Position numbers and translations under genes: made by a program. 64,000 nt of DNA from IMG/VR virus record IMGVR_UViG_3300035656_000018, one strand, 5' to 3'. Positions 3,830 to 63,264 of this stretch are shown one piece after another; the stretch's first letter is position 1; every line of letters begins with the position of its first letter. Source of the DNA: an uncultured virus (IMG/VR IMGVR_UViG_3300035656_000018) (taxonomy: Duplodnaviria > Heunggongvirae > Uroviricota > Caudoviricetes). The notes below the pieces were generated by a model. That model saw only the letters and a list, made by a program, of their open reading frames with translations. It was not told where the DNA came from and did no database searches.

Positions 3830-4438
3830 ATGGATAAACTTACTAACGAATTAATTGCCAAGGTTGCAAACAAGTTAAACCTTGAACCAGCTCTGTTAAA
3901 GACAGTAACTGTAGTAGAATGTGGTAATCGAGACGGATTTTTACCCTCTGGTAGACCTCAAATTCTCTTCGAGGGTCATGTAATGTGGAAATATTTGAAG
4001 ATAAAACTCGATGGAGAAGGTAAAAGAACCTATTTATACGATCTAGCCAAGAGAAATCCATCCTTAGTTTATCAAAAATGGACCAAAGAATTCTACTTAG
4101 GAGGTGAAGGAGAGTGGAAAAGACTCGAAGCAGCTCGTAAAATTGATGAAAACTGTGCTAATTTAGCTACTTCTTGGGGATTGGGACAGATTATGGGCTT
4201 CAATTATCAGCTTTGTGGATGTCAATCAGTGGATGAAATGATCCAAAAGATGTCTGAATCTCATGAAATGCAGCTAGAAATGATGTACCATTTCCTCTAT
4301 AACTCCGGTTTAGTGAAGCATTTGAAGGCAAAAGACTGGGATGCCTTCGCTAAAGGATATAATGGTCCTGGTTACAAAGATAATAACTACGACCAAAAGC
4401 TAAGAAATACCTATGAAAACTTTAAAGACAAGCTATGA
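3830..4438 (+). CDS. Endolysin, N-acetylmuramidase (DUF3380/Muraidase-type)
   Basis: VE..G...GF, PQILFEGH, SWGLGQIMGFN, FAKGYNGP.Y..N.YD.KL motifs. Confidence 0.85.
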   Translation: MDKLTNELIAKVANKLNLEPALLKTVTVVECGNRDGFLPSGRPQILFEGHVMWKYLKIKLDGEGKRTYLYDLAKRNPSLVYQKWTKEFYLGGEGEWKRLEAARKIDENCANLATSWGLGQIMGFNYQLCGCQSVDEMIQKMSESHEMQLEMMYHFLYNSGLVKHLKAKDWDAFAKGYNGPGYKDNNYDQKLRNTYENFKDKL

Positions 4439-4785
4439 AAGTAATCTACAACAACCTTATACCTTTCAAGGGATACAAAGCTATCAACATCTTTGGTTTA
4501 GTGTTTGTAAGAAAGGGGGCTAAGTTTACTGAGGTGGATTATAACCATGAACATATACATTCAAAGCAAATGGCTGAGATGTTATGGGTATTTTTCTACC
4601 TTTGGTATGGAATCGAGTACTTAATCATCCTTTGTTTTGCTAAATGGAACAAGCAGAATGAAAGGTATCATGATGTAAGTTTTGAGGAAGAAGCTCATAA
4701 TAATGATTCGAACCTGGATTATATTTCAACTAGGAAGCATTATGCTTGGTTCAAATACATAAAATTGAGAAGTTACAAGAAATGA
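4435..4785 (+). CDS. Small HExxH zinc-metallopeptidase-like protein
   Basis: NHEHIH..Q and SFEEEA motifs, with a hydrophobic segment between them. Confidence 0.6.
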   Translation: MKVIYNNLIPFKGYKAINIFGLVFVRKGAKFTEVDYNHEHIHSKQMAEMLWVFFYLWYGIEYLIILCFAKWNKQNERYHDVSFEEEAHNNDSNLDYISTRKHYAWFKYIKLRSYKK

Positions 4786-5795
4786 AAGACTTAAAAGTAC
4801 TGGGAGTATGTGGAGGGCAAGGAGCCCTCCTATTCCCTTTTAGAGATAAACTTATTGGAAATATAGAACCTCGTGGAGTATTCCATACCGGTAGAGAAGA
4901 ACAGTGGAAAGCTAATTTCAAAGGCATACCTTTCTTAAAAGGGTATGAACTACCAGAAGATTGGCATCCAGATATCATATTATCTAGCCCTGATTGTGGT
5001 AGTTGCTCAGTAATGAGATTATCTAAATCTAAGACCCTAGGAGACCCTAAAAGTAATAAAAGTATACAACTAGTATTTCAAGCAATTCAATATTACGAAC
5101 CTGCTCTCTTTCTTATAGAAAACCTACCAAGATTGCTATCCCTCATTTCTAAAGAAATGTTAACGGATTTCTTTAAGAACTATAAACTTATTTTTCACGA
5201 AAGAAGCGTTTCTGACTTCGGAAACTCCCAAGTATCAAGAAAAAGATTAGTAATTATCGGAGTTCATTTAGACAAGGGAAAAGAGTATTTGGATTCTTTT
5301 AATGAAGTATTCCAAGTAAATACTCCAAAACTTACTAGAGATTTACTAGTACAAGCCCCACAGGAAGCTTTAATTCCATTCTCTGATAAAGTTTTAGCCA
5401 TGTATGATTATCGGAAATTACCTGAAAAGAAAAATCTTACAGTCAGACAAGTAAGACAACTTTGGACTCATGATTTCAAGGATGAAAAGAAATGGCCTAT
5501 TAAAACTGCTAAGATGAGTACTCTCCCGGGAGTATATCGATTGGAAGATGATAAACCACCTTTAACACTCAGACCCTCAGATAGGCAATTTAGACCTGAT
5601 GGGTATCCTTTGGGTATTTATGATTTCAAGGCAATTATGGGATTCCCTGAAAATTACCGAGTATTTATTCGAGGATTTGCAACTTGGGATCCTAAGACTT
5701 ATCATTACTGGTTAAATAAAGCTAGGTATACCTTGAGCAAAGGGTCAGTATATGAAGTAGGATTATGGTTTAAGAAATGCCTTAATTTCAAGTGA
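4782..5795 (+). CDS. C5-cytosine DNA methyltransferase-fold protein (atypical cofactor-binding motifs)
   Basis: Motif I CGGQG, IV SPDC, VI IENL, VIII QVSRKR, IX IMGFPENY; start set at ATG 4782 (ATGA overlap with the upstream stop). Confidence 0.8.
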   Translation: MKDLKVLGVCGGQGALLFPFRDKLIGNIEPRGVFHTGREEQWKANFKGIPFLKGYELPEDWHPDIILSSPDCGSCSVMRLSKSKTLGDPKSNKSIQLVFQAIQYYEPALFLIENLPRLLSLISKEMLTDFFKNYKLIFHERSVSDFGNSQVSRKRLVIIGVHLDKGKEYLDSFNEVFQVNTPKLTRDLLVQAPQEALIPFSDKVLAMYDYRKLPEKKNLTVRQVRQLWTHDFKDEKKWPIKTAKMSTLPGVYRLEDDKPPLTLRPSDRQFRPDGYPLGIYDFKAIMGFPENYRVFIRGFATWDPKTYHYWLNKARYTLSKGSVYEVGLWFKKCLNFK

Positions 5796-6917: not shown

Positions 6918-8420
6918 ATGGCAAAGAAGATACAGGAAACACCCACTAACCTTACAAGAGAAGAATTATCTAATCTATCTAGGGTTACAACGGATGTTTT
7001 CTTTTTCAGTCTTTTTTGTTATGTGATACATCCAGTGAGAGGAAAGGTTCGATTTGAATTATATCCGTATCAAAAAGCCGTACTATACCAATTTATACTC
7101 CAGAGATTCAATATCTTGTTAAAGTTCAGGCAAGCGGGTATTACAGAACTTATATCTATGTACTGCTTATGGCTGGCATCATATCATCCTAATAAGAAGA
7201 TAAACATTATCTCCATTAAGGATACAACAGCTAAGAAGGTACTTAAGAAGATTAAGTTCATGTATAAGAATCTTCCATGGTATATGCAAACCCCGATCAT
7301 TAACGGAAGAACTGGGGAATTTGGTTCTGCCTCTATGATTGAATTCGATAATGGTTCATTCATAGAATCGATCCCAACATCTTCCGAAGCCGGTCGTTCA
7401 GAATCTCTTTCTCTCCTGGTAATTGATGAGGCTGCAATCGTTCGGTGGGCTTCAGCTATTTGGGCAGCTGCCTTCCCTACGCTTTCCACCGGAGGTTCAG
7501 CCATCATCAATTCTACTCCATACGGTATGGGTAATTTTTACCATTCAACATGGGTAGATGCTATAGCTGGAGGTAATCCTTTCAATGCTATTCGATTATA
7601 TTGGCAGATGCACCCAGAACGGGATCAATCTTGGTATGACCAGATGGCTTCTGCATTGGGTCCAAAAAGAACTGCACAAGAAATCGATGGAGACTTTCTT
7701 TCTTCAGGTAATACAGTATTTGATATGGCAGATATCAAGGCTATCGAAGATTGCTTAAGTGATTATCCAGTTTTAAAATATCGTTTCAATCGTCAGTATA
7801 GACAATTCAACGAACCAGATCCAAATAAACAGTACTTTATCGGTGCAGACGTTGCAACAGGTAGAGGCTCAGACTATTCTTCTTTCACTTGTATGGACAA
7901 GCTGGGAGAAGAACAAGTTGTGTATAAGGGAAGAATGGCAGTAGATAAATATGCTAGGTTACTGGGAGATACTGGGCAATTATTTAATTTTGCTGTTGTA
8001 GCTCCAGAATCTAACGACGTTGGGTTAGCAGTAACTTCTGCTCTTCAGTCAGAAGGTTACCCTAACCTATATTACTATCAAAAGCTTCTGAAAAAGAAAG
8101 GTAAGTCCAGACCAGAGGTTGATAAATCTCCAGGTTGGTTAACTACCCAAAAGAATCGTTCAGTAATTATAGAGGGTCTAGAACAAGATATTCGAGAAGA
8201 GAATATTATTGTGAAGGATCCTTTCTTTGTTCAAGAAGCTCCTACCTTTATATATGATGGTTTGGGTAGACCTGTAGCCATGGGTAAACACAGAAATAAT
8301 ACTTCTGCTGTAGATGTGGATTTGGAAGGAGATGTTTATTCTGACGATGATATATTTGGTAAAGCAATTTGTAATCACATACGAAAAGGAAAAACTAATG
8401 TAATAATACAACCGAAATGA
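6918..8420 (+). CDS. terL: Terminase large subunit
   Basis: KFRQAGIT, LVIDEAA, INSTPYG, GADVATG..DYS, PESNDVG motifs. Confidence 0.93.
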   Translation: MAKKIQETPTNLTREELSNLSRVTTDVFFFSLFCYVIHPVRGKVRFELYPYQKAVLYQFILQRFNILLKFRQAGITELISMYCLWLASYHPNKKINIISIKDTTAKKVLKKIKFMYKNLPWYMQTPIINGRTGEFGSASMIEFDNGSFIESIPTSSEAGRSESLSLLVIDEAAIVRWASAIWAAAFPTLSTGGSAIINSTPYGMGNFYHSTWVDAIAGGNPFNAIRLYWQMHPERDQSWYDQMASALGPKRTAQEIDGDFLSSGNTVFDMADIKAIEDCLSDYPVLKYRFNRQYRQFNEPDPNKQYFIGADVATGRGSDYSSFTCMDKLGEEQVVYKGRMAVDKYARLLGDTGQLFNFAVVAPESNDVGLAVTSALQSEGYPNLYYYQKLLKKKGKSRPEVDKSPGWLTTQKNRSVIIEGLEQDIREENIIVKDPFFVQEAPTFIYDGLGRPVAMGKHRNNTSAVDVDLEGDVYSDDDIFGKAICNHIRKGKTNVIIQPK

Positions 8421-9910
8421 AAATTCTTAAGTTTTTTGGATTCGATAGAAGGAATCGATCTCCAATACAAGAAAACAAGGCTAATCCTCCAAGTAAAAAA
8501 GAGGAGGTACCTATTTCACCCGGTAGAGTATCGGAACCGGATGATGACCCAGGTAACTTCATTCATACATTGAAAGGCTTAACTCAGATGGTTACGCCTT
8601 CTTTTCGTGTTGAAGTGATTCAGCTTTTAAGGGATTTATATAAAGTGAATCCAGATGTTAACATAGCTTTACAGGATATGTTTAAGCTTGCTAATACTGG
8701 TCACAACATAACCTTCCCTAATAATACCGATAAAGAGGCTGATAAGATGAGAGATCATCTTTCTAAGGTATCCTCTAAATGGTCTAACTATACTGCTGGT
8801 ATGGATGGTTTGGTAAACAAGATGATAGTTCAATTGATGATTAGTGGAGCTATCTCAGTAGAAGCTGTACCAAATGAAAAGTTAGAGGGTCTAGCTACTG
8901 TATTATTCCTCAAACCAGATAGGATAGTATTCAAAAGAGAGAATAATGGTGTATACAGTCCATATCAGAGGAACACTCTTTGGAATGGCTCGAATAAGCA
9001 AGATTATATCAAACTTAATACAGAGACCTACTGTTATGTTGGTATGTATAATGATACTGATGAACCTTACGGAATACCTCCTTTTATGGCATCTTTGGAT
9101 TCATTAAAGGGTCAGCATGATATGAAAACTAACTTTAAACATATCATGGAAATCTGTGGTATGGTTGGTTTTCTAGAGGCTTTGATGGAAAAACCACAAC
9201 AGAAACCTAATGAAAATGTAGAAGCTTATACTAGAAGATTAAATAGGGAGCTAATACGTTTGAAACAGAATGTAAGGGAAGGTATGAAGGATGGAGTAGT
9301 AACTGGTTACATTGATGACCACCAGTTTAAACTTAACTCTACTTCAAAAGAGATGAGCAATATTGATAAACCCTGGAATATGAACCAGCAATCAGTTGCT
9401 AATGGTTTGGGAGTAAATGGCAACCTAATTGGAGTACAAGCTTCCATTGGAGAAGGAGCAACTGGTATTATGCTTTCTAAGCTTATAAGTCAGCTAAAGA
9501 ATATCCAAATGATAGTTTCTTATGTTCTTAAGTTTATTTATGAACTAGAACTACGTCTGGCTGGCTTTGATTGCAAGGGAATATCCATTACTTGGGGATC
9601 ATCCACTATCTCTGATGAGGTTAAAATCCAACAGGGTAGACAGTATAAGATTCAGAACCTTGACTTACTTTACAAGGCAGGTATCATTTCTCAATATCAA
9701 TATGCTTGGGAAATGGGTTATGATTCTCCTTCAGAAGAAGAACCAAGAGTTTCATTGGAAGACCAATTTGCTAAGGGAGGTAATTCAGACCCACAAGAGG
9801 GTACTAAGAAGAAACAGAGACAGGACGATAAGAATCAATCCGCTCGTAGATCAAGAGATAAAAATAACCCGGCTCCTTCACGAGGAGATCAAAATACTAA
9901 ATCAAGATGA
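8417..9910 (+). CDS. Portal protein
   Basis: 497 aa directly after TerL; YGIPP motif; acidic/basic C-terminal tail. Confidence 0.8.
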   Translation: MKILKFFGFDRRNRSPIQENKANPPSKKEEVPISPGRVSEPDDDPGNFIHTLKGLTQMVTPSFRVEVIQLLRDLYKVNPDVNIALQDMFKLANTGHNITFPNNTDKEADKMRDHLSKVSSKWSNYTAGMDGLVNKMIVQLMISGAISVEAVPNEKLEGLATVLFLKPDRIVFKRENNGVYSPYQRNTLWNGSNKQDYIKLNTETYCYVGMYNDTDEPYGIPPFMASLDSLKGQHDMKTNFKHIMEICGMVGFLEALMEKPQQKPNENVEAYTRRLNRELIRLKQNVREGMKDGVVTGYIDDHQFKLNSTSKEMSNIDKPWNMNQQSVANGLGVNGNLIGVQASIGEGATGIMLSKLISQLKNIQMIVSYVLKFIYELELRLAGFDCKGISITWGSSTISDEVKIQQGRQYKIQNLDLLYKAGIISQYQYAWEMGYDSPSEEEPRVSLEDQFAKGGNSDPQEGTKKKQRQDDKNQSARRSRDKNNPAPSRGDQNTKSR

Positions 9911-15396: not shown

Positions 15397-18300
15397 ATGT
15401 ACGTTAGTAAATACTACACTTGCGAAGAGATTGACCAACGGCTATTACAGGGTTATTATGATGACTCTTTGGCTCATGGTTTTGTTGGAACTCTTAAAGA
15501 GTTCTGGGCATTCTTCTTATCAATTGCAAACAAGGTAGATAAGAAAGAAGGTTGGGATTTGTCAGAAAATAACTTCTCTGATGAATTGCTAGAAAAACTG
15601 AATGGAATTGAGGAACATGCTAACTACGTTACTAAAGTTTCTCAACTAGAAAACGATTTGAAATATCAGACTCAAGAACAAGTTGAGAAATATATACATG
15701 ACTTAGTAGATGGTGCTGATGATGCTTTGGATACATTAAAGGAATTAGCTGAAGCATTAAACAATGACCCGAACTTTGCTACCAATATCACTAACCGATT
15801 AACTGAATTACGTACTCAATTAGAAGCTGAGGTAACTAGAGCTAAGAACCGTGAAAACGAATTAGCTTCTCAGATTAAGATTGTGAACGATAACTTGGTT
15901 AACTCGGTTAATACGTTGAATGCAACTATCATTAAAGTAGTACAAGATATTACTAGGATGATAGAAGCAATCAATGCTCGTATTCAAAAGGTAGAAGACC
16001 GGGTTGGTGATTTGGAAGTAGAAACTGACAATAACTTAACTGAAGCTAAAGAATATGCTAAGGAATTGGTAGATAAGGAAGCTGCTGAACGTAGAGCTGC
16101 TGATGAGAAACTGACCGAGGCTGTTCATCAAGTACAGTTAGACCATACTAGGGATATTGCCGACTTAAATAATAAGATTCTAACCGAGGCTTCAGAAAGA
16201 GCAAATGCAGATGTAGCATTAGAATCTAAACTGAACACCGAAATCAGTGATCGTAAAACTGCAGACCAAGAACTTGAATCCAAGATTAATGCTGAAGCTG
16301 CAGCTCGTACTGCTCAGGATGAAGTATTACACCAACAGATTGTAAAGGAAACTTCTGACCGTCAGAATGCAGATAATGGTTTACAGCAGAACATTACTCA
16401 AGAAGCTCAGAACCGTCAGAATGCAGATACTGTACTTCAGAACAATATTGATAACGAGAAAGAAACTCGAATTGCTCAAGATGAAATCCTTGACCATAAG
16501 ATTGAGGATTTGAAAACTCAGGCCGGTACAGATAAAACCGAATTGCTTGAAAAACTAGAGCAAGAAAAACAAGAACGTATTGCTGCCGATAAAGACTTAG
16601 ATAATCGTAAGGTAGATAAAAGAGAAGGCTATTCTCTTACTAAAAACGACTTTACCGATATTCTCAAGGCTAAATTGGATGGCATTGAAGAACATGCTAA
16701 TTATATCACAAAAGTATCTCAGCTTATCAATGATGCTGGTTATCAAACTGAAGCAGATCTTCAGGCAGCTATTGAAAAGATTATTGGGGAAGCTCCTGGA
16801 GTATTAGATACACTAGAAGAGATTGCAAAAGCATTGGGAGATGATCCTAACTTTGCAACTACAATTACCAAGAAATTGGCTGCTATTACCGAACAGTTGA
16901 ATCAAGAAATTACTAATCGTACAGAAGCTGATGCCCAGGTACAGGCTAATGTAGATAAGGAAGTTTCTGACCGTAAGGAAGCTGATACTGCTCTTGAGGC
17001 TAAGTTGAAAGAATACGTTGATAACGAAGTAGATAAAATTACTGGTAACACTGACGGTATTCAAGCTAGTCTGAATAAGGAAATCCAAGATAGAAAAGAT
17101 GCCGATGCTGCATTACAAGCTGCTATCACTAAGGAAGAAACGGATCGTAAGGCTGCTGATGCTGCATTAGATACTCGAGTAACTGCTAATGCTACCAAGA
17201 TACAAGAATTGGCTTTATCTATTCAGGATGCGGTAAATACCGTTAAAAATGAACTTCAGGCTAAGATAGATGCTTTGCAAACAGAAGTAAATGCTAACAA
17301 GGCAAATATCCAACGTAATACTGACAGATTAAATGACCAGATTACTAAGGAAGCTGAAGATTATGCTGAATTAAAAGGCATGGTTAATGCAGAAGCTGAA
17401 GCAAGAGCCAATGCTGATACTAATCTTAAGTCTCAGGTAGATAAGGTAAATATCGACTTGAACACTGAGGTTTCAAAGAGAGAAGCTGGTGATACTGTTT
17501 TACAGCAGAATATCGATAAGGAGATCTCTGATAGAACTTTAGCAGATACTTTATTAGATAATAAGTTCACTGGCTTAATGAATACTGAATCTGCTGCCCG
17601 GGCAAATGAAGATGAGAAAATCAATGCTCGAATTGACCAGGAGATTAAAGATCGTAAGGCAGGAGATGATGCTTTAAGCACCAGAATAGATAGCCTCAAT
17701 AGTGGAGTAACCGGTTCTTTAGATGAGCTCAGGGAGAAAGTAACTAATAACACTACTGCTATTCAAACCGAAGTAGAAAGAGCTAAGGCTGCTGAACAAG
17801 CTCTTAAGGATTCTCTGACTACAGCTATGGAAAATCACAAAGATGATTTGGTAGCTATATCTAAAGATATCAATGATGAGGCTCAAAGTAGACTACAAGA
17901 AGATACCAAGCTTCAGAATAATATTGATACTGAAACCCTTAATCGTACTCAGGCAGACACTCTGTTAGAGAATAAGATTACTCAGGAAGTATCAGATAGA
18001 GTTCAGGCTGTTGAAAACTTGAATGACCGAAAGGTTGATAAAGTAGATGGCAAAGAGCTTTCTTCAAATGACTTTACCGACTTATTAAAAGCTAAGTTAG
18101 ATAATATCCAGGAATTTGCTAACTACATTACTAAGGTATCTCAGTTGGAAAACGATTCTAACTATCAGAATGCCGAACAAGTAGAAGCTGCAATCCAAAA
18201 GGTTATTGGTTCTGCTCCTGGAGTATTAGATACACTAGAAGAGATTGCAAAAGCATTGGGAGATGATCCTAACTTTGCAACTACAATTACTAATAAGCTG

Positions 18301-21249
18301 ACTGAACTTAAAGGTATTATAGATAAGGAAATCTCCGATAGAACTGCAGCTGATGAACAAGTTACTCAGAAGTTTACTGAATTAAGTACTACACTTAATG
18401 CTACAGTAAGTGAACTGAGAACTTTCGTAACAGAAACTCGTTCTGAATTATTAACAAAGGCTCAGGCTCAGGATGAATTAATTGCTAAGAATACTGCTAA
18501 TATTCAACGTAACCTAGAATTAATTCAGGGATTACAAAGTAATCAGAATACTGGTTATCTTGAAATCAAGGAACTATTGAATACGGAAATTGAGGCTAGA
18601 AAGGCTGAGGATATTCGTATTGAAGCTAAAGTAGACAAGAATACTCAGGACCTTACTACAGAACGTAATGAGCGTATTGCTGCCGATAAAGTTCTCCAGG
18701 ATAATATTGATGCTGAAGAAGCTGCAAGAATTGCTGCTGATAATGCTCTGGGTAAACGTATCGATAAAGAAATCGAGGATAGAAAAGCAGCTGATACCGC
18801 ACTTGAGAATAAATTTAATGGTATCACTAACGGCTTAGATGAACGTCTTCAGAAAGAAGAAGCAACTTCAAATGCTTTACCCTTAACTATGGTTACGGAA
18901 ATTGATCCGAACTTGGTTATCAATGGTACTTCTGCTGAAGTAAACTTTAAGAGTTCTGTAAAAGGAGAAGGTAATCTCTATGGAGAACCTATGCCTCGTA
19001 AGTTTGCTATCCCTGCTTCTACAGATGCTAAAGCCGGTCTTCAATCAGCTGCCGATAAGAAGAGATGGAATTCTATGCCCAATGATTATATCACTGGAGC
19101 TAGTTATACACCTAAGGCTGGTGTGGTTACTACTAACATAAGTAGAAGTACATATAACTCCGATGAAGGTATACAGAAATCTAATGATTTCACTGTAGAT
19201 ATCCCTGCTTCTACTGCTGAGAAAGCAGGTGTACAAACTGCAGCAGATAAGAAGTTATTTAACTCTATTCCTCAGACTGTAGTAGTTGGAGAAGGAGCAA
19301 CTTCAGATGCTAATAAAGTTACAGTATCAGTAAACCGAAAAACTGTAAACGAAGGTATATATAAAGATGATAATACCACTTTTAATTTACCAGTAGCCTC
19401 AACTACTAAAGCTGGTACTATGACTGCTGCTGATAAGGTTAAGTTGGATGAAACTTTACCCCAGCAGATTGCTAAGGAAATCCAAGATAGAAAAGATGCC
19501 ATTGAAGCCTTGAAGAATTCTTCCGAAGCTTCCCTTGCTCAAGAAATCAAGGATAGAAAAGCAGCTGACCAGGCATTGGACACTAAATTTACTCAGGCTA
19601 TCAAAGAAGAGGCAGATGCTCGTGCTGAATACGACCAGGTTCAGATGCAAAAGATTCAGGAAGAAGAAGAAGCCAGAGCTGCTGCAGATACCGCACTTGA
19701 AAATAAGTTACAAACCAACATCAATAACTTAGAAAAGAAACATGATGATTTTGTAGCAACTAAGGGTAAGGCTAATGGATTTGCATCTTTGGATGGTAAT
19801 GGATTAGTACCCTCTAGTCAATTGCCTTCTTATGTTGATGATGTTATCGAAGTTTATGCTACTTATGATGTCAGTGAAACTGGAAAGCTGAGCAATATTA
19901 AATTATATTCTGACCCAGATCATGCTAATCCTATTACTGGAGAATCAGGTAAGATATATTTGAATATTACCCAGGATGAACCCTCTTATCAATTCCGTTG
20001 GTCAGGTACTCAGTTTGTAGATAGTAATACTTCTTCACTGATACTTGGAGAAGTTACTGGTACTGCTTATGATGGAGGTAAGGGTAAAGCTTTAGCTGAT
20101 TGGAGAAAATCTCTGAGTGATAATCTAAGGTTCTATTCTCATATTAAGGATGACAGAGCTTGGACTAGAAATGCTACCGAAGTTAGATTAAATTTCGATT
20201 GTTCAGATTTTGGTAATACTGCAAGTGTAAATACTTATAATCAACCTATCCCAGCTGCTACCAAAGACTTAGCAGGTGTACAAACTGCAGCAGATAAGAA
20301 ACTGTTTGATTCTATCCCGGGTACTATTATAATTTCTGGTAAAGGAGTAGTTCAGAATACGGATAAAGTTTGGGTACAGATTAGTAAATCTACTAAAGCT
20401 GATGGAGTATATGGTGAAGCTACTACACAGACATTAGAAATTTTAGCTGCTAATGCTAATCGAGCTGGAGTATTGACTCGGGAGATGTTCAATAAACTTA
20501 ACTCTGGTCTGAATGGAGATATTACCAATGCTTTGAATGAAGCTAAGGCTTATACTGATGCTGCTAAAACTGCATTAGAGAAATTAATCCAGGATTCTGA
20601 CAAAGTAATTAAGGAAAGCTTAGATGCTCATATTGGCAATAAGAGTAACCCTCACAATGTAACCAAAGCTCAGATAGGTTTAGGTAATGTACAGAACTTA
20701 GCTCCAGCAGATATGCCAGTATCTACTGCTCAGGCTGCTGCTATTGCAGATGCTAAGGCTGCAGGTACAAAAGCTCAGACCGACTTAAGTACCCATGCAA
20801 ACAGAAGGGATAATCCTCATAATGTAACTAGAGCTCAATTAGGATTGGCTACTACAGACCAAGTAGTATTTGCTAAAACTACTGCAGCTTCTGGTTTCTG
20901 GAAGGAATCAGATGGTAGATTAAAATCTCAAGTAGAGAATTTGAACCATACTCTGGACCAAATCTGTAATATACCTACAGTTCACTTCAAGATGAATGGT
21001 AAATACCAAGTGGGAACTATTGCTCAGAGCTTAGAGGAAATTGAACCTCTGTTGGTATCAGAGAATACTATACCTGCTTCTCAAGTACCTAACCAATCTA
21101 GATTCGAAACTTTCGTCGGAGAAGATGGTCAGGAATATGTAAAAGTAAAAGTAGTAGAATATGAAATGCTCAGTGTCATGGCTCTCGAAGGAGTTAAGTT
21201 ATTGAGAAAAGAATTCGAAGACTTTAAGAAACAATTAAACAATAAGTAA
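15397..21249 (+). CDS. Giant coiled-coil fibre with C-terminal S74 intramolecular chaperone
   Basis: 3x LDTL.E.A.AL..DPNFAT modules; 18-residue E..DR..AD repeats; PA....AG...AADK repeats; NPHNVT x2; SDGRLK...GTIAQ chaperone motif. Confidence 0.8.
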   Translation: MYVSKYYTCEEIDQRLLQGYYDDSLAHGFVGTLKEFWAFFLSIANKVDKKEGWDLSENNFSDELLEKLNGIEEHANYVTKVSQLENDLKYQTQEQVEKYIHDLVDGADDALDTLKELAEALNNDPNFATNITNRLTELRTQLEAEVTRAKNRENELASQIKIVNDNLVNSVNTLNATIIKVVQDITRMIEAINARIQKVEDRVGDLEVETDNNLTEAKEYAKELVDKEAAERRAADEKLTEAVHQVQLDHTRDIADLNNKILTEASERANADVALESKLNTEISDRKTADQELESKINAEAAARTAQDEVLHQQIVKETSDRQNADNGLQQNITQEAQNRQNADTVLQNNIDNEKETRIAQDEILDHKIEDLKTQAGTDKTELLEKLEQEKQERIAADKDLDNRKVDKREGYSLTKNDFTDILKAKLDGIEEHANYITKVSQLINDAGYQTEADLQAAIEKIIGEAPGVLDTLEEIAKALGDDPNFATTITKKLAAITEQLNQEITNRTEADAQVQANVDKEVSDRKEADTALEAKLKEYVDNEVDKITGNTDGIQASLNKEIQDRKDADAALQAAITKEETDRKAADAALDTRVTANATKIQELALSIQDAVNTVKNELQAKIDALQTEVNANKANIQRNTDRLNDQITKEAEDYAELKGMVNAEAEARANADTNLKSQVDKVNIDLNTEVSKREAGDTVLQQNIDKEISDRTLADTLLDNKFTGLMNTESAARANEDEKINARIDQEIKDRKAGDDALSTRIDSLNSGVTGSLDELREKVTNNTTAIQTEVERAKAAEQALKDSLTTAMENHKDDLVAISKDINDEAQSRLQEDTKLQNNIDTETLNRTQADTLLENKITQEVSDRVQAVENLNDRKVDKVDGKELSSNDFTDLLKAKLDNIQEFANYITKVSQLENDSNYQNAEQVEAAIQKVIGSAPGVLDTLEEIAKALGDDPNFATTITNKLTELKGIIDKEISDRTAADEQVTQKFTELSTTLNATVSELRTFVTETRSELLTKAQAQDELIAKNTANIQRNLELIQGLQSNQNTGYLEIKELLNTEIEARKAEDIRIEAKVDKNTQDLTTERNERIAADKVLQDNIDAEEAARIAADNALGKRIDKEIEDRKAADTALENKFNGITNGLDERLQKEEATSNALPLTMVTEIDPNLVINGTSAEVNFKSSVKGEGNLYGEPMPRKFAIPASTDAKAGLQSAADKKRWNSMPNDYITGASYTPKAGVVTTNISRSTYNSDEGIQKSNDFTVDIPASTAEKAGVQTAADKKLFNSIPQTVVVGEGATSDANKVTVSVNRKTVNEGIYKDDNTTFNLPVASTTKAGTMTAADKVKLDETLPQQIAKEIQDRKDAIEALKNSSEASLAQEIKDRKAADQALDTKFTQAIKEEADARAEYDQVQMQKIQEEEEARAAADTALENKLQTNINNLEKKHDDFVATKGKANGFASLDGNGLVPSSQLPSYVDDVIEVYATYDVSETGKLSNIKLYSDPDHANPITGESGKIYLNITQDEPSYQFRWSGTQFVDSNTSSLILGEVTGTAYDGGKGKALADWRKSLSDNLRFYSHIKDDRAWTRNATEVRLNFDCSDFGNTASVNTYNQPIPAATKDLAGVQTAADKKLFDSIPGTIIISGKGVVQNTDKVWVQISKSTKADGVYGEATTQTLEILAANANRAGVLTREMFNKLNSGLNGDITNALNEAKAYTDAAKTALEKLIQDSDKVIKESLDAHIGNKSNPHNVTKAQIGLGNVQNLAPADMPVSTAQAAAIADAKAAGTKAQTDLSTHANRRDNPHNVTRAQLGLATTDQVVFAKTTAASGFWKESDGRLKSQVENLNHTLDQICNIPTVHFKMNGKYQVGTIAQSLEEIEPLLVSENTIPASQVPNQSRFETFVGEDGQEYVKVKVVEYEMLSVMALEGVKLLRKEFEDFKKQLNNK
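16792..18290 (+). repeat. 77-bp identical intragenic repeat (16792-16868 and 18214-18290)
   Basis: GCTCCTGGAGTATTAGATACACTAGAAGAG...GCAACTACAATTAC is identical in both copies. Confidence 0.9.
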
Positions 21250-48093: not shown

Positions 48094-48911
48094 GAGACCC
48101 TTCTATTCATATCACAAAGCATCAATTCGAAAAAATCCTATCTCAGTTAGAGGTATATAATTTTCCGATTGATGCTTTCTTTGTTATTGCACGAAAAGAA
48201 GCAATAAATACTAGAGTTGTAGTTGTTACAAACAATAAGACAACTAAGAAAGTTTCTAACATTTTACTAGCATCTAAGGGAGATGCTGCTTTAGTTGCTG
48301 ATATTATATATGCAACTCGTATAAAACTAAAGCATAGAGGAGTTAGAAAAATAAGAGAAACAGAACCAAGAAATTGGGCGGTATGTAAAAAGATAGCTGA
48401 GCTCTGTAATCAATTCTGTGAAGATTTTCAATTGGATACCCGGGAAGGTTTTATTAAATATATCGAACTAGGTATCAAGAAGATGGACGGTAATTACAAT
48501 AATCTTTTAAACAGGTTATCGGTTATGTCAGAAAAGATATCAGATTTATATTCTGCTACTTTGGAAATGGAAGAGGATTCTGGTAATGCTAAAGCTATAC
48601 ATGATTACTTTATAAAGAGAGTAGCGGATGTTACTGGCATATATGAATCATTCGTTAATCAGCCAGATAAATATATACACTTTGTAAGGTTAGATAAATT
48701 TCTATCAGAGAAAGGGTGGGACCCAATTCAATTCATAGATGCTCAATTTGAATCCCTTGCTTGGTGTAATGGTTTACCTGAACCAAGTCAGATGTATAAT
48801 GACAAGGCTATAGAAAGGTATAATAAATACTTATTTAAACATAAAAATCAATCCTCATCGGAGGCTCCTAAAATAGAAGGAAGTCTCTGGTCAAAAATTA
48901 ATCAATCATGA
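48090..48911 (+). CDS. Hypothetical protein (replication region)
   Basis: 273-aa ORF, translationally coupled on both sides. Confidence 0.75.
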   Translation: MRDPSIHITKHQFEKILSQLEVYNFPIDAFFVIARKEAINTRVVVVTNNKTTKKVSNILLASKGDAALVADIIYATRIKLKHRGVRKIRETEPRNWAVCKKIAELCNQFCEDFQLDTREGFIKYIELGIKKMDGNYNNLLNRLSVMSEKISDLYSATLEMEEDSGNAKAIHDYFIKRVADVTGIYESFVNQPDKYIHFVRLDKFLSEKGWDPIQFIDAQFESLAWCNGLPEPSQMYNDKAIERYNKYLFKHKNQSSSEAPKIEGSLWSKINQS

Positions 48912-49528
48912 AAGCTTTTAAAAATCGTTTAGAAGAAATGGCAGAAGCCACAGTAAATGCTTTGGATTATTCCGATAGCAAAGTAGAATACCCAGATATT
49001 TCTATGGTTCAGAAATGGCCTAAGGAAATAATCTTGCCCTTGTATGATTTATATAAAAATACTCGGTATTCAGAATTAGCTTCAATCCTTATGTATACTC
49101 AGCATCAGGCTAGGTTTGAAGAAATAGGAGAATTGATGCTTGGTATCGGATTAGTAGAGATGGTACATTATGATAAGCTGGGAGACTTCTTATTAAAAGC
49201 TTCTGATGTAATGGACACCGATATACCAGGAAATAATCAGTTAACTGTACATCCCCTAATAGATCTTGGTACTTCGGCAGAATCTGCTTTAAAATTATCA
49301 TTACAAGCAGAAAAAGAAACTCTAGAAGAATATTATAAAGTATTCGATTCTCTGAATAAAAAAGAAGAGTATATAAAGAGAAGTGATTATATTCCAGTTA
49401 CCTATCTTATCCAGAAATTCATTGCTGATGAAGAATATCACATTTCTCTTTTAAAGAAAGCTCTGAAAGAATACGAGGATTCCGATGACGAACCTAAGAA
49501 ATGTAAATCAGTAACAGTAATCATATGA
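48908..49528 (+). CDS. Ferritin-like di-metal carboxylate protein (Mn-catalase/bacterioferritin-like)
   Basis: E...Y, EMVH, E....Y, DEEYH ligand pattern. Confidence 0.8.
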   Translation: MKAFKNRLEEMAEATVNALDYSDSKVEYPDISMVQKWPKEIILPLYDLYKNTRYSELASILMYTQHQARFEEIGELMLGIGLVEMVHYDKLGDFLLKASDVMDTDIPGNNQLTVHPLIDLGTSAESALKLSLQAEKETLEEYYKVFDSLNKKEEYIKRSDYIPVTYLIQKFIADEEYHISLLKKALKEYEDSDDEPKKCKSVTVII

Positions 49529-51825: not shown

Positions 51826-52019
51826 AAATGATATGGGCTATGTTCAAGGTATACCTTAACAACCCAAATTACTATGTGAAACAAGAGGATATACTTGCTA
51901 ATGTATGCGGCAATGGAAGCAGAGATGTAAGGAGGATGATGAACTCTCTTGGTATTCACAAGGGAGATCCATCAACATTAACTTATGGCCAACTTTTAAA
52001 ACAATGCAATATAATATGA
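51813..52019 (+). CDS. Hypothetical protein
   Basis: 68-aa ORF overlapping both neighbours. Confidence 0.6.
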   Translation: MQKIEMIWAMFKVYLNNPNYYVKQEDILANVCGNGSRDVRRMMNSLGIHKGDPSTLTYGQLLKQCNII

Positions 52020-52570
52020 ACAAATTCAGATTTATCAAAGTAAGAGACGTAAAGTCTCCCTCAAGAGGAAACGAAGGAGATGCAGGATTAGATTTCTATA
52101 TCCCTAAAGACTTAACTCTACAAGATTTAGTAAAAGCTAATCCACAGTTGATATTCCATTGTGAAATACCCGAACCTGGTAAAGTAACACTTGAATATAA
52201 TTCAAATAACCAGGTACAAGTAATTTATATTTCTCCCTTTACTAGAATACTTATACCATCAGGTATCAAAGGTTTATTAGAACCCAAAGATTCTATGCTG
52301 ATGGCAGCAAACAAATCTGGTATATCAACCAAGAAGGGGCTTATATATACTGCCGAGATAGTAGATTCTCCCTATACTGGAGAAATTCACATAGGTATAT
52401 ATAATACTTCTCATGAGTTTCAAGTAATAGAAGCTGGAACTAAGCTAGTACAATTTATTCATGTACCCATTTATCTTACAAAACCCGAAGAAGTAACTAA
52501 TGAAGAATTCTACAATGATGCTTCAACTTGGGGAACAAGAGGTAACAATGGATTCGGATCAACCAATTAA
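52016..52570 (+). CDS. dut: Trimeric dUTPase
   Basis: AGLD, KSG, VDSPYTGEI, KLVQ, RG.NGFGST motifs; start ATG 52016. Confidence 0.9.
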   Translation: MNKFRFIKVRDVKSPSRGNEGDAGLDFYIPKDLTLQDLVKANPQLIFHCEIPEPGKVTLEYNSNNQVQVIYISPFTRILIPSGIKGLLEPKDSMLMAANKSGISTKKGLIYTAEIVDSPYTGEIHIGIYNTSHEFQVIEAGTKLVQFIHVPIYLTKPEEVTNEEFYNDASTWGTRGNNGFGSTN

Positions 52571-53307: not shown

Positions 53308-54150
53308 ATGGATATTTCTAATCTGAAAGAAAAAGCCCCTGAAATCAAACAGGGGCTTGAACTTGAGAATATGTATGAGATTGGCTATCGTCAATTAGAC
53401 TGTTATAAACCCTTAGAAAGGTTACCAGAATATCCCATGGATATTAACAGTACTAAAAATCAATCTCTTATGAAAACCCTTATATCTCAAGTAGTAGAGG
53501 AGTTAATGGAGGGTTATGAATCTACTTCTAATATAAATGATATTCTAGAAAACAAGGGATGGAATACCAATTTATATACTGACGTAGAAGAGATTCAGAT
53601 AATCAACAATCTACAGAATGCTAATGAAGAACAAGCAGATGCAATAGGATTCTTCTTATCAGCTCTGATATATGCTAATATATTGCCAGAGGATATCTAT
53701 AGTTGGGCAAACAAAGAACTGACTAAAGGGCAAAAGGCAGTAGAAAATTTAGAAGACGTAATGGCATTCGGTATTCATATGATTTTAGAGATGGATGCCG
53801 TTAGTAGTATATTCAAAAATTTCAAGCTAATATCCGAAACAATTGAGGATAAAACTTCCGAGTATATAAAGGGATTCAAGGAAATGAGTCCAAATTTGCA
53901 TACTGATGAGAAAAATATTTTGTTTCAGATAGTGTATGTTTTGAATCTTGCTAGAAATACTCTTAAGAATCGTACATGGAAACAGTCACCAGTAATAACT
54001 AAAGAACTAGAATTCCAGGATAGGATGGTAGAGGCATTCTATTATTATATGGGATTCCTATCAATAATGGGATTTACTCCATTGGGTATATACGAGCTGT
54101 ATTTCAAGAAAGAACGGTTGAATGAATGGAGAATCACTACACAATATTAA
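53308..54150 (+). CDS. All-alpha NTP pyrophosphatase (dimeric dUTPase / T4 gp56 dCTPase-like)
   Basis: EELME, EEQAD, RTWK, YFKK..LN.WR...Y motifs. Confidence 0.75.
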   Translation: MDISNLKEKAPEIKQGLELENMYEIGYRQLDCYKPLERLPEYPMDINSTKNQSLMKTLISQVVEELMEGYESTSNINDILENKGWNTNLYTDVEEIQIINNLQNANEEQADAIGFFLSALIYANILPEDIYSWANKELTKGQKAVENLEDVMAFGIHMILEMDAVSSIFKNFKLISETIEDKTSEYIKGFKEMSPNLHTDEKNILFQIVYVLNLARNTLKNRTWKQSPVITKELEFQDRMVEAFYYYMGFLSIMGFTPLGIYELYFKKERLNEWRITTQY

Positions 54151-54165
54151 TGAAAGGAGGTATTT

Positions 54166-55080
54166 GTGTCAGGTTGGAATAAACAATTAAATGGCTTAGA
54201 GCTTAATACAGAAGAGCAAATCCATTCATTAGAATTTGCTACTTCACAAGAAGCATGGGAAAAGTTAAATGAAGGATTTCTAAGACTAGAACCATCTTTA
54301 TTTGCAAAAGGTGCTACCGCAAACAGTGGAGTAGCTGTGGTATATAACGTATTTATAAAAATACGTAAAGCTTGGGTAGACCCAGACTTTGATTATGGTA
54401 GATGTTTCAATTATAAAGAGACTAAGTGGACAAGCTTACTGAACAATTACATTGATTTCAATAAGCTTGATTTATTGCGTAGTAAGCTGAGAGTACTAAA
54501 AACCAAGTATAATCAGAATTACAACGTTACTTATATGTTTAATAATCATCACGATAACGGTAAACAATGTTTAATTGCTGCTACATTCTCCAAACGATTT
54601 GGGGAAGACATACCAGTTATTACAATGGTAATCAGGGCATCCGAGATAACAAAAAGGTTAATCTTCGACTTCTTACTAATACAACGAATGGCGGAATATG
54701 TGTACGGACCAGAACAATCAGTACAAATCAATTTATTTGCCACTCAAATGTATGGGAATGTAGAAACACTTCTGATGTATCATACTCATAAACCTTTGAA
54801 GAAGGTATTAAAGGGAACTGATAAGGAAAATTCTTGGATAAAGAGGTTGAATGAGGTATTTGATAAATTTCAAAACGGTAAAGAGAAAGATTTCTCTAGT
54901 TTTAAGGTATTCTTTAGAAGTTTTAAAGTGCTTCGACCAGATTTATATAAGGAAACATATAAATCTATGAAAGCAAAGGAATTACTTCTTGAATATGAAG
55001 ATATCGAATATCCCGAGAATGTAATCTCTTACTCTCAACGTAAAGCATATAAGAAGAAACTTTTAAAACAGAAGAAATGA
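54166..55080 (+). CDS. Divergent thymidylate-synthase-fold protein
   Basis: KQCL, IRASE.......D; GTG start after AAGGAGGT. Confidence 0.65.
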   Translation: MSGWNKQLNGLELNTEEQIHSLEFATSQEAWEKLNEGFLRLEPSLFAKGATANSGVAVVYNVFIKIRKAWVDPDFDYGRCFNYKETKWTSLLNNYIDFNKLDLLRSKLRVLKTKYNQNYNVTYMFNNHHDNGKQCLIAATFSKRFGEDIPVITMVIRASEITKRLIFDFLLIQRMAEYVYGPEQSVQINLFATQMYGNVETLLMYHTHKPLKKVLKGTDKENSWIKRLNEVFDKFQNGKEKDFSSFKVFFRSFKVLRPDLYKETYKSMKAKELLLEYEDIEYPENVISYSQRKAYKKKLLKQKK

Positions 55081-55817
55081 GAATTTATAGCAGTAGTTAT
55101 GAGTTAATGTCTGAAATGGGCAGAGAACTCAACAGTTATGGTCAAACTGTAAAACCAAAGACTTACCAGAATAAGAATATTGAAGGTAATGAAGATTTTG
55201 TAACTAAAGAGATCATTTGCCAACAATATTGCTTAACTTCTTTGCAAGATCCAACGTGGTTATTCTTCTATTCAAGGTCTAGGGAATGGGCAGATGCTGA
55301 GTTCCAAGAAAGGATTAATACTTCTGAGGTAATTAACCCGGGCAAAGCTTGGGAATTAAGAAAAGACTTATGGGAACAGTTTTTGGTAGATGGTAAATTT
55401 GATTATACCTATAACGAAAGGATGGTAATTCTTCCCTATACCATACAATTACTAAGATCAGATTCTGATACTCGTAAAGCGGTATTACCTATATTTAATG
55501 GTAATGGTGAAGATGATACTCTTTATTATCATGGTAATAAACGTATACCCTGCTCTATGTACTATGATTTCCTTATCCGAGAGAATAGTAAGAGAGAGAA
55601 GGTATTACACATTTGCTATCACCAAAGAAGTTCGGACTTTGTTACTCACTTTGGTAATGATGTATACCTTGCATGGAGACTAATGGAATATGTAGCTAAA
55701 GAGGTTGGAGTAAAACCAGGTTATTTGTATCACACCATAGACTCATTACATACTTATCAAAAAGACTGGGATAAGTTAGCCAGTTCTCTAAGAGTATTTG
55801 AGGATACTATCATATAA
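55077..55817 (+). CDS. Thymidylate-synthase-family dCMP-modifying enzyme (dCMP hydroxymethylase-like)
   Basis: TRKA, IPCS, FLIR, QRSSDFVTHFGND, SLHTY; Asp at the TS Asn177 position. Confidence 0.8.
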   Translation: MRIYSSSYELMSEMGRELNSYGQTVKPKTYQNKNIEGNEDFVTKEIICQQYCLTSLQDPTWLFFYSRSREWADAEFQERINTSEVINPGKAWELRKDLWEQFLVDGKFDYTYNERMVILPYTIQLLRSDSDTRKAVLPIFNGNGEDDTLYYHGNKRIPCSMYYDFLIRENSKREKVLHICYHQRSSDFVTHFGNDVYLAWRLMEYVAKEVGVKPGYLYHTIDSLHTYQKDWDKLASSLRVFEDTII

Positions 55818-59383: not shown

Positions 59384-59773
59384 ATGTATAATTTACAACT
59401 TATATCAACTCTAGTAGCTAAGAAGCTTGGTAATAGTATTCCAGGTTTACCCGTAGAAAATAAAATCTTGGTATATTCTCCCAAAGAGATTAATACCACT
59501 GCTTCTGGTATTATTATCCCAGATATGGTAAAGGAAGGAGTTCCTCGTAAGGGTGTTGTTATTAAATCTGGTGTAATCACAGAAGAATATCAAACTTACA
59601 AGGACCACGTGGAAATCGGTCGTATAATCGAATATGGATTGTATGCTGGTAAAGAACATCAATTCGATAAAAACTGTTTACCTCAGGAATTACAACCCTT
59701 TTATGAAAAGGGTCTGTTCACCGTATTAGCTTTAAATGAGATTTCATACTCAGAACCCAATAACTTAGATTGA
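59384..59773 (+). CDS. groES: GroES-like co-chaperonin
   Basis: PVENKILV, TTASGIIIPD..KE, GVVIKSG, YAGKE. Confidence 0.75.
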   Translation: MYNLQLISTLVAKKLGNSIPGLPVENKILVYSPKEINTTASGIIIPDMVKEGVPRKGVVIKSGVITEEYQTYKDHVEIGRIIEYGLYAGKEHQFDKNCLPQELQPFYEKGLFTVLALNEISYSEPNNLD

Positions 59774-61818: not shown

Positions 61819-62689
61819 GAAAACAATATTACTAATAGATGGAGAGAATATACTTCATCAAAGTTTCCACAAATTCGAAAAGCTTAAGTCTACCGATGGA
61901 AAACCAAGTGGAGCAATATTCGGATTTTTTAGATCATTACATGGGTTCTTACATAGGTGGGACCCAGATGAGGTTATTATAACTTTTGATAATGGACACT
62001 CTCCTTATAGAGATGCTTTGTTACCAGATTATAAGGGACATAGGAAAAATATTTCAGTAGATTATGAATCTCTTCAATCTCAAAAACGTATTATTATGGG
62101 TATGCTTAAGCTCCTAAGAATTAAATATGTTTTTGATAAGCATAATTCTACTAAATATGAAGGAGATGATTTCTTAGCATACCTAGTTTTAAATAAAAAA
62201 CCCACTGAGAAGGTAATCATAATATCATCCGATAAGGACTTTAATCAACTTATCGGTAAAGACGTAAAGATAAACAATCCAAGAAAAGATGAGATGATTC
62301 ATCAGGGTAATTGTAAGGAACTATTCGGATATTCTCCTGAAGAAACAGTAGATTACCTTTCAATGGTGGGGGATACTTCGGATGATATTAAAGGTATACC
62401 AGGTATTGGTCCTGTAAAAGCTAGGAAAATATTGGACGAATATGGTACTTTGGATAAATTTCTAGAGCATCATCATCAAACTTCTCATGTAGAGATTGCA
62501 GAAAGGAATAAGAAGCTTATAGATTTAAGATTATTTCAAAAAGAAGTACCATTATCCAAGTTACCTATGAAAAAGTTTGCTAATAAGGAGATAAAATACA
62601 AGAAATTCAAAGAAGTCTGTATCGAATACTCTTTAGCATCCTTTATGACAAATGAATTTATGAAACCATTTAAAGATTTGTTATCATGA
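61811..62689 (+). CDS. 5'-3' exonuclease / flap endonuclease (PolI N-terminal-like)
   Basis: LIDG, YKGHR, EGDD, SSDKDF.Q, GD.SDDIKGIPGIG. Confidence 0.92.
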   Translation: MSKKTILLIDGENILHQSFHKFEKLKSTDGKPSGAIFGFFRSLHGFLHRWDPDEVIITFDNGHSPYRDALLPDYKGHRKNISVDYESLQSQKRIIMGMLKLLRIKYVFDKHNSTKYEGDDFLAYLVLNKKPTEKVIIISSDKDFNQLIGKDVKINNPRKDEMIHQGNCKELFGYSPEETVDYLSMVGDTSDDIKGIPGIGPVKARKILDEYGTLDKFLEHHHQTSHVEIAERNKKLIDLRLFQKEVPLSKLPMKKFANKEIKYKKFKEVCIEYSLASFMTNEFMKPFKDLLS

Positions 62690-63264
62690 AAAGAATTATG
62701 TTTGTAGGGCCAAGTGGAATAGGAAAAACCACTTTGGCAAAGTTCATAGAAACCAAATATGGTATACCCTTTATATCTGGTAGTATGTCAGATTTAATGC
62801 CAGATACAAAAGAGATGCACCATGCTGAGTTTTTACACCAAGAATGTGGAGAACTCATAAACAAGGATTATCAATTGTTGAATCTGAGAAATAAGCTTTT
62901 CAAGGATAAAGAAACTTTTGTAACAGACCGTAGTTATGTAGATTTAGCAGCTTATTTCATATATAAACAATCTACTCATATCCCAGAATGTGAAGTAGAT
63001 GCTTTCTTAGATATATGCAAAGATCTTACAGTTCAACAATGTGATTTATTAATATACCTTCCCTTGAGTATGTACAATATGAAAGAATGGCCAATGGAAG
63101 ACAATAAGAAGAGAATCATAAATAGATATTATCAGGCTCAGATGTCAGATATAATGGGTAACCTGTTAACTCAGTGGAGTACTTTAAGTGTAATAGATAT
63201 ATTAGTAGTACCCCAATTAGATTTCTACGACAGAATACACATGATAATGTCAAGATTAGATTAA
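62686..63264 (+). CDS. P-loop nucleotide kinase (dNMP-kinase-like)
   Basis: GPSGIGKTT, TDRSYVD. Confidence 0.7.
   Translation: MKRIMFVGPSGIGKTTLAKFIETKYGIPFISGSMSDLMPDTKEMHHAEFLHQECGELINKDYQLLNLRNKLFKDKETFVTDRSYVDLAAYFIYKQSTHIPECEVDAFLDICKDLTVQQCDLLIYLPLSMYNMKEWPMEDNKKRIINRYYQAQMSDIMGNLLTQWSTLSVIDILVVPQLDFYDRIHMIMSRLD

Follow-up and report, generated by a model that had tools for sequence, protein, structure and literature searches.

The window analysed here is a stretch of 64,000 nucleotides from an uncultured virus of the Caudoviricetes (IMG/VR record IMGVR_UViG_3300035656_000018) and covers part of a phage genome of about 85 kb. It contains a gene for a protein with the fold of cytosine-C5 DNA methyltransferases (C5-MTases), in which a Lys stands at the position of the conserved Asn of motif X. 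The open reading frame (ORF) of this methylase-like gene lies on the + strand and runs from a TTG at 4746 or an ATG at 4782 to position 5795. The ATG overlaps the stop codon of the upstream ORF (4435-4785) and agrees with the Met at which the homologues begin, so we consider the product to be 337 amino acids (aa) long. The coordinates of all features are given in Table 1.

Sequence profiles recognise the protein only in part. It matches Pfam PF00145 with an E-value of 3.8e-9 and 36.8 bits (cut-off 22), over residues 43-294 only, and its 30.1 bits with NCBIfam dcm (TIGR00675) are below the curated cut-off of 100.65. Searches of PHROGs and of PDB sequences gave weak matches. Using 34 family sequences as input, we obtained an AlphaFold2 (AF2) model with a predicted local distance difference test score (pLDDT) of 88.9 and a predicted template modelling score (pTM) of 0.89. 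The leading Foldseek matches of this model were all C5-MTases, with E-values of about 1e-12 to 1e-14. Pairwise comparison by VIA-align resulted in Z scores of 24.7 for DNMT1, 23.7 for HaeIII (root mean square deviation (rmsd) 2.8, 267 residues aligned), 23.2 for HhaI (rmsd 3.0, 279 aligned) and 22.5 for the carboxymethyltransferase CmoX, PDB 8yf3 (rmsd 3.4, 277 aligned). The C5-MTase fold, which the first-pass annotation had read from the letters, is thus borne out by the PF00145 score above the gathering threshold and by the structural matches.

A homologue scan of 1.84 billion representatives returned 181 matches at E <= 0.001. About 35 full-length representatives with 29-64 % identity make up the window's own family (alignment A1). 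The remaining matches represent a sister clade (alignment A3) with the motifs G(I/V)GS, HPxCGxxS, (D/E)NL, YGNxQxxRxR, RERARIQGxPDxF and KQTGKxMP. There were no classical PPCQ/GNAV enzymes among the matches listed that we inspected. The protein belongs to a large uncharacterised phage-only clade, defined in this analysis by a P-x-C-G motif IV, an Arg two residues past the Glu of motif II and a Lys in motif X or IV. The window protein fits all of these marks (P70-D71-C72-G73, R31 and K320). Several sister-clade proteins are long forms (P0234, P0246, P0252 and P0266 with 712-824 aa, L100:10001-12253 and L097:9794-12382), and P0234 carries a second DNA methylase region of the N6/N4 type at about residues 590-660. 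A Cys-rich CxxCx5C tail is found at the end of many sister-clade proteins.

The residues invariant in the window's family include G12, G14, E29, R31, P70, C72, S76, E113-N114-L115, Q150, R153 and R155. The first-pass annotation had described the catalytic motifs as intact. This holds for Cys72, Glu113, Arg153 and Arg155 and fails for the Pro-Cys-Gln of motif IV, which now reads Asp-Cys-Gly (D71 and G73). The full motif is S69-P70-D71-C72-G73 (SPDC), D71, C72 and G73 are present in all 121 close homologues, and 148 of the 158 clade sequences have Gly at the position of HhaI Q82. The departure of motif I from FxGxG, also noticed in the first pass, is confirmed by the alignments, with Phe replaced by Cys and GxG retained; the classical Phe is found in only 5/158 clade sequences. 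Arg31 is invariant throughout the clade (158/158), while classical enzymes have Asp or Asn there, and the Asp of motif III is unconserved.

The position of Lys320 was determined by several alignments. In the window protein, S319-K320 stands where classical motif X has Gly-Asn. The profile of A3 aligned with HaeIII (E 1.2e-34) and HhaI with high posterior, placing the K of 'QTGK' on the Asn of 'GN', and against CmoX of Synechococcus phage S-B43 (sequence from MN018232.1; hhalign probability 98.3) the same Lys fell on the R of 'VGRMVPP'. In PMC12783734, this Arg is numbered R350 and equated with HhaI N304. The window's K320 is in turn aligned with the motif X Lys of A3 by hhalign of A1 against A3 (probability 100, E 2.2e-55), and MAFFT L-INS-i concurs. 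The direct hhalign of A1 with CmoX (probability 96.7) ends at residue 305, short of motif X, so the equivalence with CmoX runs through A3. In the AF2 model, the C-terminus forms a helix (304-320), a turn (321-323) and a last helix (324-335). The structural alignments end by pairing model residue 337 with HaeIII 323 and with residue 367 of 8yf3, and therefore K320 corresponds to HaeIII N306 and CmoX R350, provided that the last helix is aligned without gaps. The by-eye register of the first-pass annotation, which had put Lys320 on the conserved Asn, is the same. That annotation had also proposed to check whether the Lys is conserved in homologues, and it turned out to be present in 119/119 close homologues that reach the column. 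By homology, Lys320 would contact the cofactor pocket.

Lys313 was first suspected to be the equivalent of the motif X Asn, as it is invariant, and it was dropped after the A3/A1 profiles, MAFFT, CmoX and the structural alignments. Low-confidence alignments of A1 with PDB profiles gave conflicting registers, HaeIII putting A314 on the Asn and ZMET2 putting N312 there. The pair N312-K313 is fully or almost fully conserved within the window's family, and neither the sister clade nor the classical enzymes have an equivalent.

The changes in motifs IV and X seem to be coupled. Across the clade, the HhaI N304 position is occupied by Lys in 128/158 and by Arg in 6/158 sequences. When the residue before the catalytic Cys is itself Lys (22 sequences), motif X Lys is found in only 4, and when it is not (136 sequences), motif X Lys is found in 124 (Fisher p = 2e-12 over the 158 sequences, with shared ancestry ignored). 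Among these 124, the residue before the Cys is acidic in 91 (46 Glu and 45 Asp). Because of this covariation, one Lys near C5 seems to be required, usually facing an acidic residue. In HhaI, Gln82 and Asn304 are described as lying close to each other at the transferable group and as restricting the transfer of extended groups; Q82A reduces methylation about 16-fold, and N304A, the best change for admitting extended groups, also lowers it (PMC3526304). The comparison supports a transferable-group pocket rebuilt at both conserved size-gating residues (Q82 to Gly and N304 to Lys), with the nucleophile and the base-binding residues kept.

The window also encodes a divergent thymidylate synthase (TS) homologue of the cytosine type. 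Asp195, at its pyrimidine-specificity position, is located 8 residues past the Asp of RSxD, and Asp is found there in 11/11 aligned TS homologues. In numbering, we take this position to be that of E. coli TS Asn177 and T4 gp42 Asp179. Both of these residues are named in titles cited in PMC8670742. The best PDB match of the TS homologue was 9IQU/9IQC, for which our literature search found no paper. TS homologues are described as making 5-hydroxymethyl-deoxycytidine monophosphate (5hm-dCMP), and in some phages 5-hydroxy-dCMP (5ho-dCMP) (PMC13326640). Because a cytosine-type TS homologue, a nucleoside triphosphate (NTP) pyrophosphatase and a kinase are present together, C5 of the phage cytosine is probably substituted beforehand.

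Whole-genome questions on the window's lineage were answered with the relatives G001-G006. The TS homologue was present in all six records of this lineage. Using the window TS as a BLASTP query, we found a match in 49/52 sister-clade loci, mostly as the neighbouring gene, and in the other three the methylase-like gene lies at a contig edge. Pfam detected the TS homologue in 37/56 genome records, among them 16 of the 20 with a completeness of at least 90 %; with four more found by BLASTP, it is present in 20/20 of these. The reverse query with the TS homologue returned 8 loci, 6 of them with an adjacent methylase-like gene, which is in tandem in one. The sister-clade phage L172 has tandem Lys-type methylase-like genes (L172:7276-8616 and L172:8652-9935) directly upstream of the TS homologue. 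In G057, a complete 82-kb phage, the TS homologue is present and the methylase-like gene is absent. Because the linkage is asymmetric in this way, the methylase-like gene looks like an optional add-on that relies on the TS product.

Two further observations concern TS-like genes. One family-type phage (G052, the record of L156) carries a canonical ThyA (E 3.6e-70) and a divergent cytosine-type TS homologue (C1:60681-61682 and C1:24475-24963). In the window, the beginning of the TS gene is overlapped by a 304-aa ORF (54166-55080). Its atlas features are like those of clusters with 10 % PF00303 members, and a by-eye register finds a Cys, R-x-S-E and an Asp 8 residues on. As a second TS paralogue it was rejected, since the hhalign probability was only 0.2 %.

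Table 1. Features of the methylase-like gene, its surroundings and the nucleotide genes in the 64,000-nucleotide window
Feature	Position	Strand	Evidence
C5-MTase-fold gene, 337 aa, Lys-type clade	4782..5795	+	Pfam, AF2 model, structure matches
Motif I, C10-G11-G12-Q13-G14; GxG kept, classical Phe replaced by Cys	4809..4823	+	alignments
Motif II, E29-P30-R31; ribose-binding Glu kept	4866..4874	+	alignments
Motif IV, P70-D71-C72-G73; catalytic Cys kept, Asp for Pro of Pro-Cys, Gly for HhaI Gln82	4989..5000	+	
Motif VI, E113-N114-L115, preceded by I112; equivalent of HhaI E119	5118..5126	+	
Motif VIII, Q150-V-S-R153-K-R155; HhaI Q161, R163, R165, one residue inserted relative to QxRxR	5229..5246	+	
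N312-K313, pair conserved specifically in the window's family; same helix as Lys320, two turns upstream	5715..5720	+	
Lys320 codon AAA; position of HhaI Asn304, HaeIII Asn306, CmoX Arg350	5739..5741	+	profile and structural alignments
N-acetylmuramidase, first gene of rightward array	3830..4438	+	
Small zincin-like protease (HExxH), translationally coupled to methylase-like gene	4435..4785	+	
Large terminase, 500 aa	6918..8420	+	
Portal, after large terminase	8417-9910		assigned by position only
dUTPase-family protein	51905..52570	+	
NTP pyrophosphohydrolase (dUTPase_2/MazG-like), candidate dCTPase	53308..54150	+	
Cytosine-type TS homologue, 246 aa	55077..55817	+	PF00303 E 5.7e-11; phrog_160 E 5.6e-25
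TS homologue, Cys159 codon	55551-55553	+	
TS homologue, Asp195 codon, pyrimidine-specificity position	55659-55661	+	
Nucleotide kinase-like protein (deoxynucleoside kinase (dNK)/thymidylate-kinase-like), candidate deoxynucleoside monophosphate (dNMP) kinase	62686..63264	+	

Regarding the gene neighbourhood, the methylase-like gene is the third of a rightward array, after muramidase and protease and followed by two small ORFs, the large terminase (TerL) and the portal. The first-pass annotation had placed it in the late operon before terminase, which agrees with this lysin-to-terminase array. It adjoins lysin and terminase in all 15 family-type phage loci examined, an arrangement that reflects shared synteny. 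The TerL of the window has no intein-like insert, and those of several related phages (L143:5594-8059, L149:5614-8100, L151:11003-13459 and L156:12005-14539) are about 820-845 aa long and contain one with HNH and NUMOD4.

The phage carries genes for baseplate J, gp25 and tube gp19 of a myovirus-type tail, a BACON-domain protein and a family A DNA polymerase, and the GC content of the stretch is 28-39 % when measured in 2-kb windows. In size, polA, myovirus-type tail genes and BACON domain it seems to resemble the 'Flandersviridae', described in PMC8008677 as a proposed group infecting Bacteroides/Parabacteroides. Its nearest relatives in GenBank and IMG/VR come from human faeces. Further products of the window are a ferritin-like protein (48908-49528), a Cpn10-like co-chaperonin (59384-59773) and a tail-fibre-like protein of 1950 aa carrying an S74 chaperone domain at its C-terminus (15397-21249). 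Two relatives were recovered from unexpected records. A whole 82-kb relative (L082, CALFLM010000093.1) sits inside a metagenome-assembled genome labelled Romboutsia, probably by mis-binning, and a 607-bp piece with 92 % protein identity (L083, NZ_BMVB01000090.1) sits inside a Streptomyces assembly, probably by contamination.

The substrate, cofactor, product and timing of the reaction are what we infer from the fold, the residues and their equivalences, the covariation and the gene linkage, and several enzymes could be drawn from these. A very divergent, otherwise ordinary S-adenosylmethionine (SAM)-dependent methyltransferase, producing 5-methylcytosine (5mC) at unreplaced cytosines or in a specific motif for anti-restriction, has the full fold in its favour, together with the conserved catalytic Cys, Glu and Arg, the GxG of motif I and the Glu of motif II, and both Pfam and the source annotations name a cytosine methylase. 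With M.HhaI and M.HaeIII (Z 23-24) the window enzyme also has the Cys nucleophile, the ENV-type Glu, the two motif VIII Arg and motif IX in common. It differs from them by Asp-Cys-Gly, the motif X Lys, the invariant Arg31 and a dcm score of 30 bits where 100.65 is the cut-off; at the positions of Q82, N304 and P80, and likewise for the Phe of motif I and the Asp of motif III, the classical residue is either replaced or not conserved. Considering that Q82A and N304A both lower methylation by HhaI (PMC3526304), and that nothing would tie an orphan methylase to phages with a cytosine-type TS, we regard an ordinary methylase as rather unlikely. The engineered M.HhaI Q82A/Y254S/N304A is changed at the same two pocket residues of motifs IV and X, but these are alanines, built for synthetic extended cofactors (PMC3526304), whereas the Lys-type clade has Gly, Lys and an added acidic residue. 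Such a pocket, enlarged at Q82 and N304, could also accept a different extended group, for example aminocarboxypropyl, which SAM or a cofactor derived from it would donate to a free C5; Lys320/Arg31 would hold the carboxylate of this group and Asp71 its amine. The Lys and acidic residue facing the transfer site, the invariant Arg31 and the kept ribose-binding Glu and GxG would all suit such a reaction. The proposal is nevertheless purely conjectural and has no precedent in the C5-MTase fold, and its need for a free C5 clashes with the linkage to the TS homologue; we consider it improbable.

For the carboxymethyl group, one of the non-methyl groups that the first-pass annotation had considered for transfer, the donor would be carboxy-SAM (Cx-SAM). 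Natural carboxymethylation of cytosine C5 was published in December 2025 for a system of CmoX, phage CmoA and the ligase CmoY (PMC12783734). This source counts 5,615 CmoX, defined by SPPC and R350, and 4,257 CmoA on CmoX contigs, assigns the binding of the carboxymethyl group to R350, the natural enzymes using Arg and not Lys, describes an AsnB-like amidotransferase as one ligase class near CmoX, and reports that host CmoA is sufficient in E. coli; it also cites M.MpeI N374K as an engineered carboxymethyltransferase. A Lys-type counterpart of CmoX, transferring the carboxymethyl group from host-made Cx-SAM to C5, would explain the basic residue at the R350/N374K position. The Cx-SAM-dependent CmoX of S-B43 (PDB 8YF3, PMC12783734) is likewise a phage-encoded C5-MTase fold with a basic residue at N304 and a small one (Ser) at Q82, some members of our clade have Arg at motif X, and 36/52 sister-clade loci contain an AsnB-like amidotransferase, as is seen near CmoX. 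The six sister loci with a P-K-C-G motif IV (L084, L085, L091, L119, L122 and L124) all lack an AsnB-like gene within 10 kb, which may mark chemical subtypes. Both defining residues of CmoX differ in the window enzyme, with SPDC for SPPC and Lys for Arg350. It therefore falls outside the CmoX definition, although the basic charge could still allow similar chemistry. In M.MpeI N374K, the Lys at the same motif X position was engineered and is the one change to a classical enzyme, whereas the Lys of the window occurs naturally, goes along with the replacement of Pro80 by Asp and of Gln82 by Gly, and shows covariation with motif IV. Our literature search brought up no natural Lys-type enzyme, its matches being CmoX, with Arg, and Lys variants made by engineering.

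The source of the cofactor was searched for at several levels. The first-pass annotation had seen no CmoA-like gene in the window, and we agree, as none of its 68 ORFs is class I methyltransferase-like and tblastn with S-B43 CmoA gave no match. With TIGR00740, CmoA was detected in 0/5 relatives of the window (96-100 % complete) and in 0/50 sister-clade phage records, including 15 with a completeness of at least 90 %, while S-B43 CmoA, used as positive control, was found with E 2.5e-34. CmoA was likewise absent from the sister loci (0/52). This contrasts with the 4257 CmoA for 5615 CmoX cited above. No CmoA signal was seen in B. thetaiotaomicron, one of 14 control genomes and the single one on which the question of a host CmoA rests, and an AsnB/CmoY-type ligase (PF00733) was present in 0/5 records of the window's lineage. 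CmoX keeps the Phe and Asp that contact adenine (PMC12783734), which are not conserved in the Lys-type clade, and it adjoins CmoA and CmoY, both lacking in the window's lineage, while the Lys-type clade is tied to the TS homologue instead, a link for which Cx-SAM offers no explanation. Moreover, the acidic residue (Asp or Glu) next to the Lys would be expected to repel a carboxylate. Because the source of the cofactor is lacking here and the Lys has an acidic neighbour, we disfavour the CmoX-like enzyme and the carboxymethyltransferase of the first pass with it, and regard it as improbable.

We tentatively favour an active enzyme for the second step of a hypermodification, which would work on DNA with pre-modified cytosine and would be neither a plain 5mC writer nor a user of Cx-SAM. 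It is preferred because a plain 5mC methylase leaves the confinement to TS phages and the loss of Q82/N304 unexplained. Pre-modified cytosine as the substrate had been a second idea of the first-pass annotation, and in view of the linkage to the TS homologue we judge it better than Cx-SAM. In such a pathway, the TS homologue, the NTP pyrophosphatase and the kinase would lead to phage DNA that contains a cytosine substituted at C5, and the methylase-like enzyme, encoded in the lysin-to-terminase array, would then act at the DNA level. Cys72 would attack C6 of the cytosine-type base, as is usual for C5-MTases, and the enzyme would alter the C5 substituent, with Lys320 and Asp71 as a charge or acid-base pair facing this substituent. 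A known likeness is to the two-step system of T4, in which the dCMP hydroxymethylase gp42 is followed by DNA glucosyltransferases (PMC8670742). Here too, a cytosine-type TS homologue, an NTP pyrophosphatase and a kinase are accompanied by an optional, dependent DNA-level enzyme, but the DNA-level enzyme of the window has a C5-MTase fold in place of that of a glycosyl- or carbamoyltransferase.

Several points weigh against a second-step enzyme. DNA modification in this phage is predicted from its genes, the TS product, and with it the starting base, could be 5hm-, 5ho- or 5-methyl-dCMP (5m-dCMP), and cytosine may be replaced in part or in full. The invariance of GxG and Glu29 suggests that binding of a SAM-like nucleoside cofactor is retained, and a group transferase would account for this equally well or better. 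The three-dimensional placement of Lys320 derives from alignment. In the window, the TS and methylase-like genes are about 50 kb apart, so the linkage in this lineage is one of co-occurrence only, and the co-occurrence counts start from phages bearing the clade. The covariation has exceptions, namely 4 sequences with Lys at both sites and 7 with neither Lys nor Arg at either, and its statistic takes no account of shared ancestry.

A more specific and more doubtful proposal, which may nevertheless be considered, is that the clade represents a new class of hypermodification enzymes. In this class, the C5-MTase fold would derivatise a TS-supplied cytosine of the 5-hydroxymethyl type. After covalent attack on C6, the oxygen of the C5 side chain would leave and a nucleophile would be taken up, with Lys and Asp in acid-base roles and another ligand in the former cofactor site. 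To our knowledge, SAM-independent side reactions of C5-MTases are so far known only from laboratory work, and if the proposal were true, this would be their first natural use.

Phages of the window type appear to be abundant viruses of Bacteroidota in the human gut, and the chemistry of their DNA decides which host defences and which laboratory methods work on them. Together, the change of both size-gating residues and the restriction of the clade to phages with a cytosine-type TS point either to a cytosine derivative not yet described or to a new reaction of a textbook fold. Enzymes of this kind are sought for base-resolution sequencing of epigenomes and for DNA labelling, where the engineered N374K and Q82A/N304A variants already serve.

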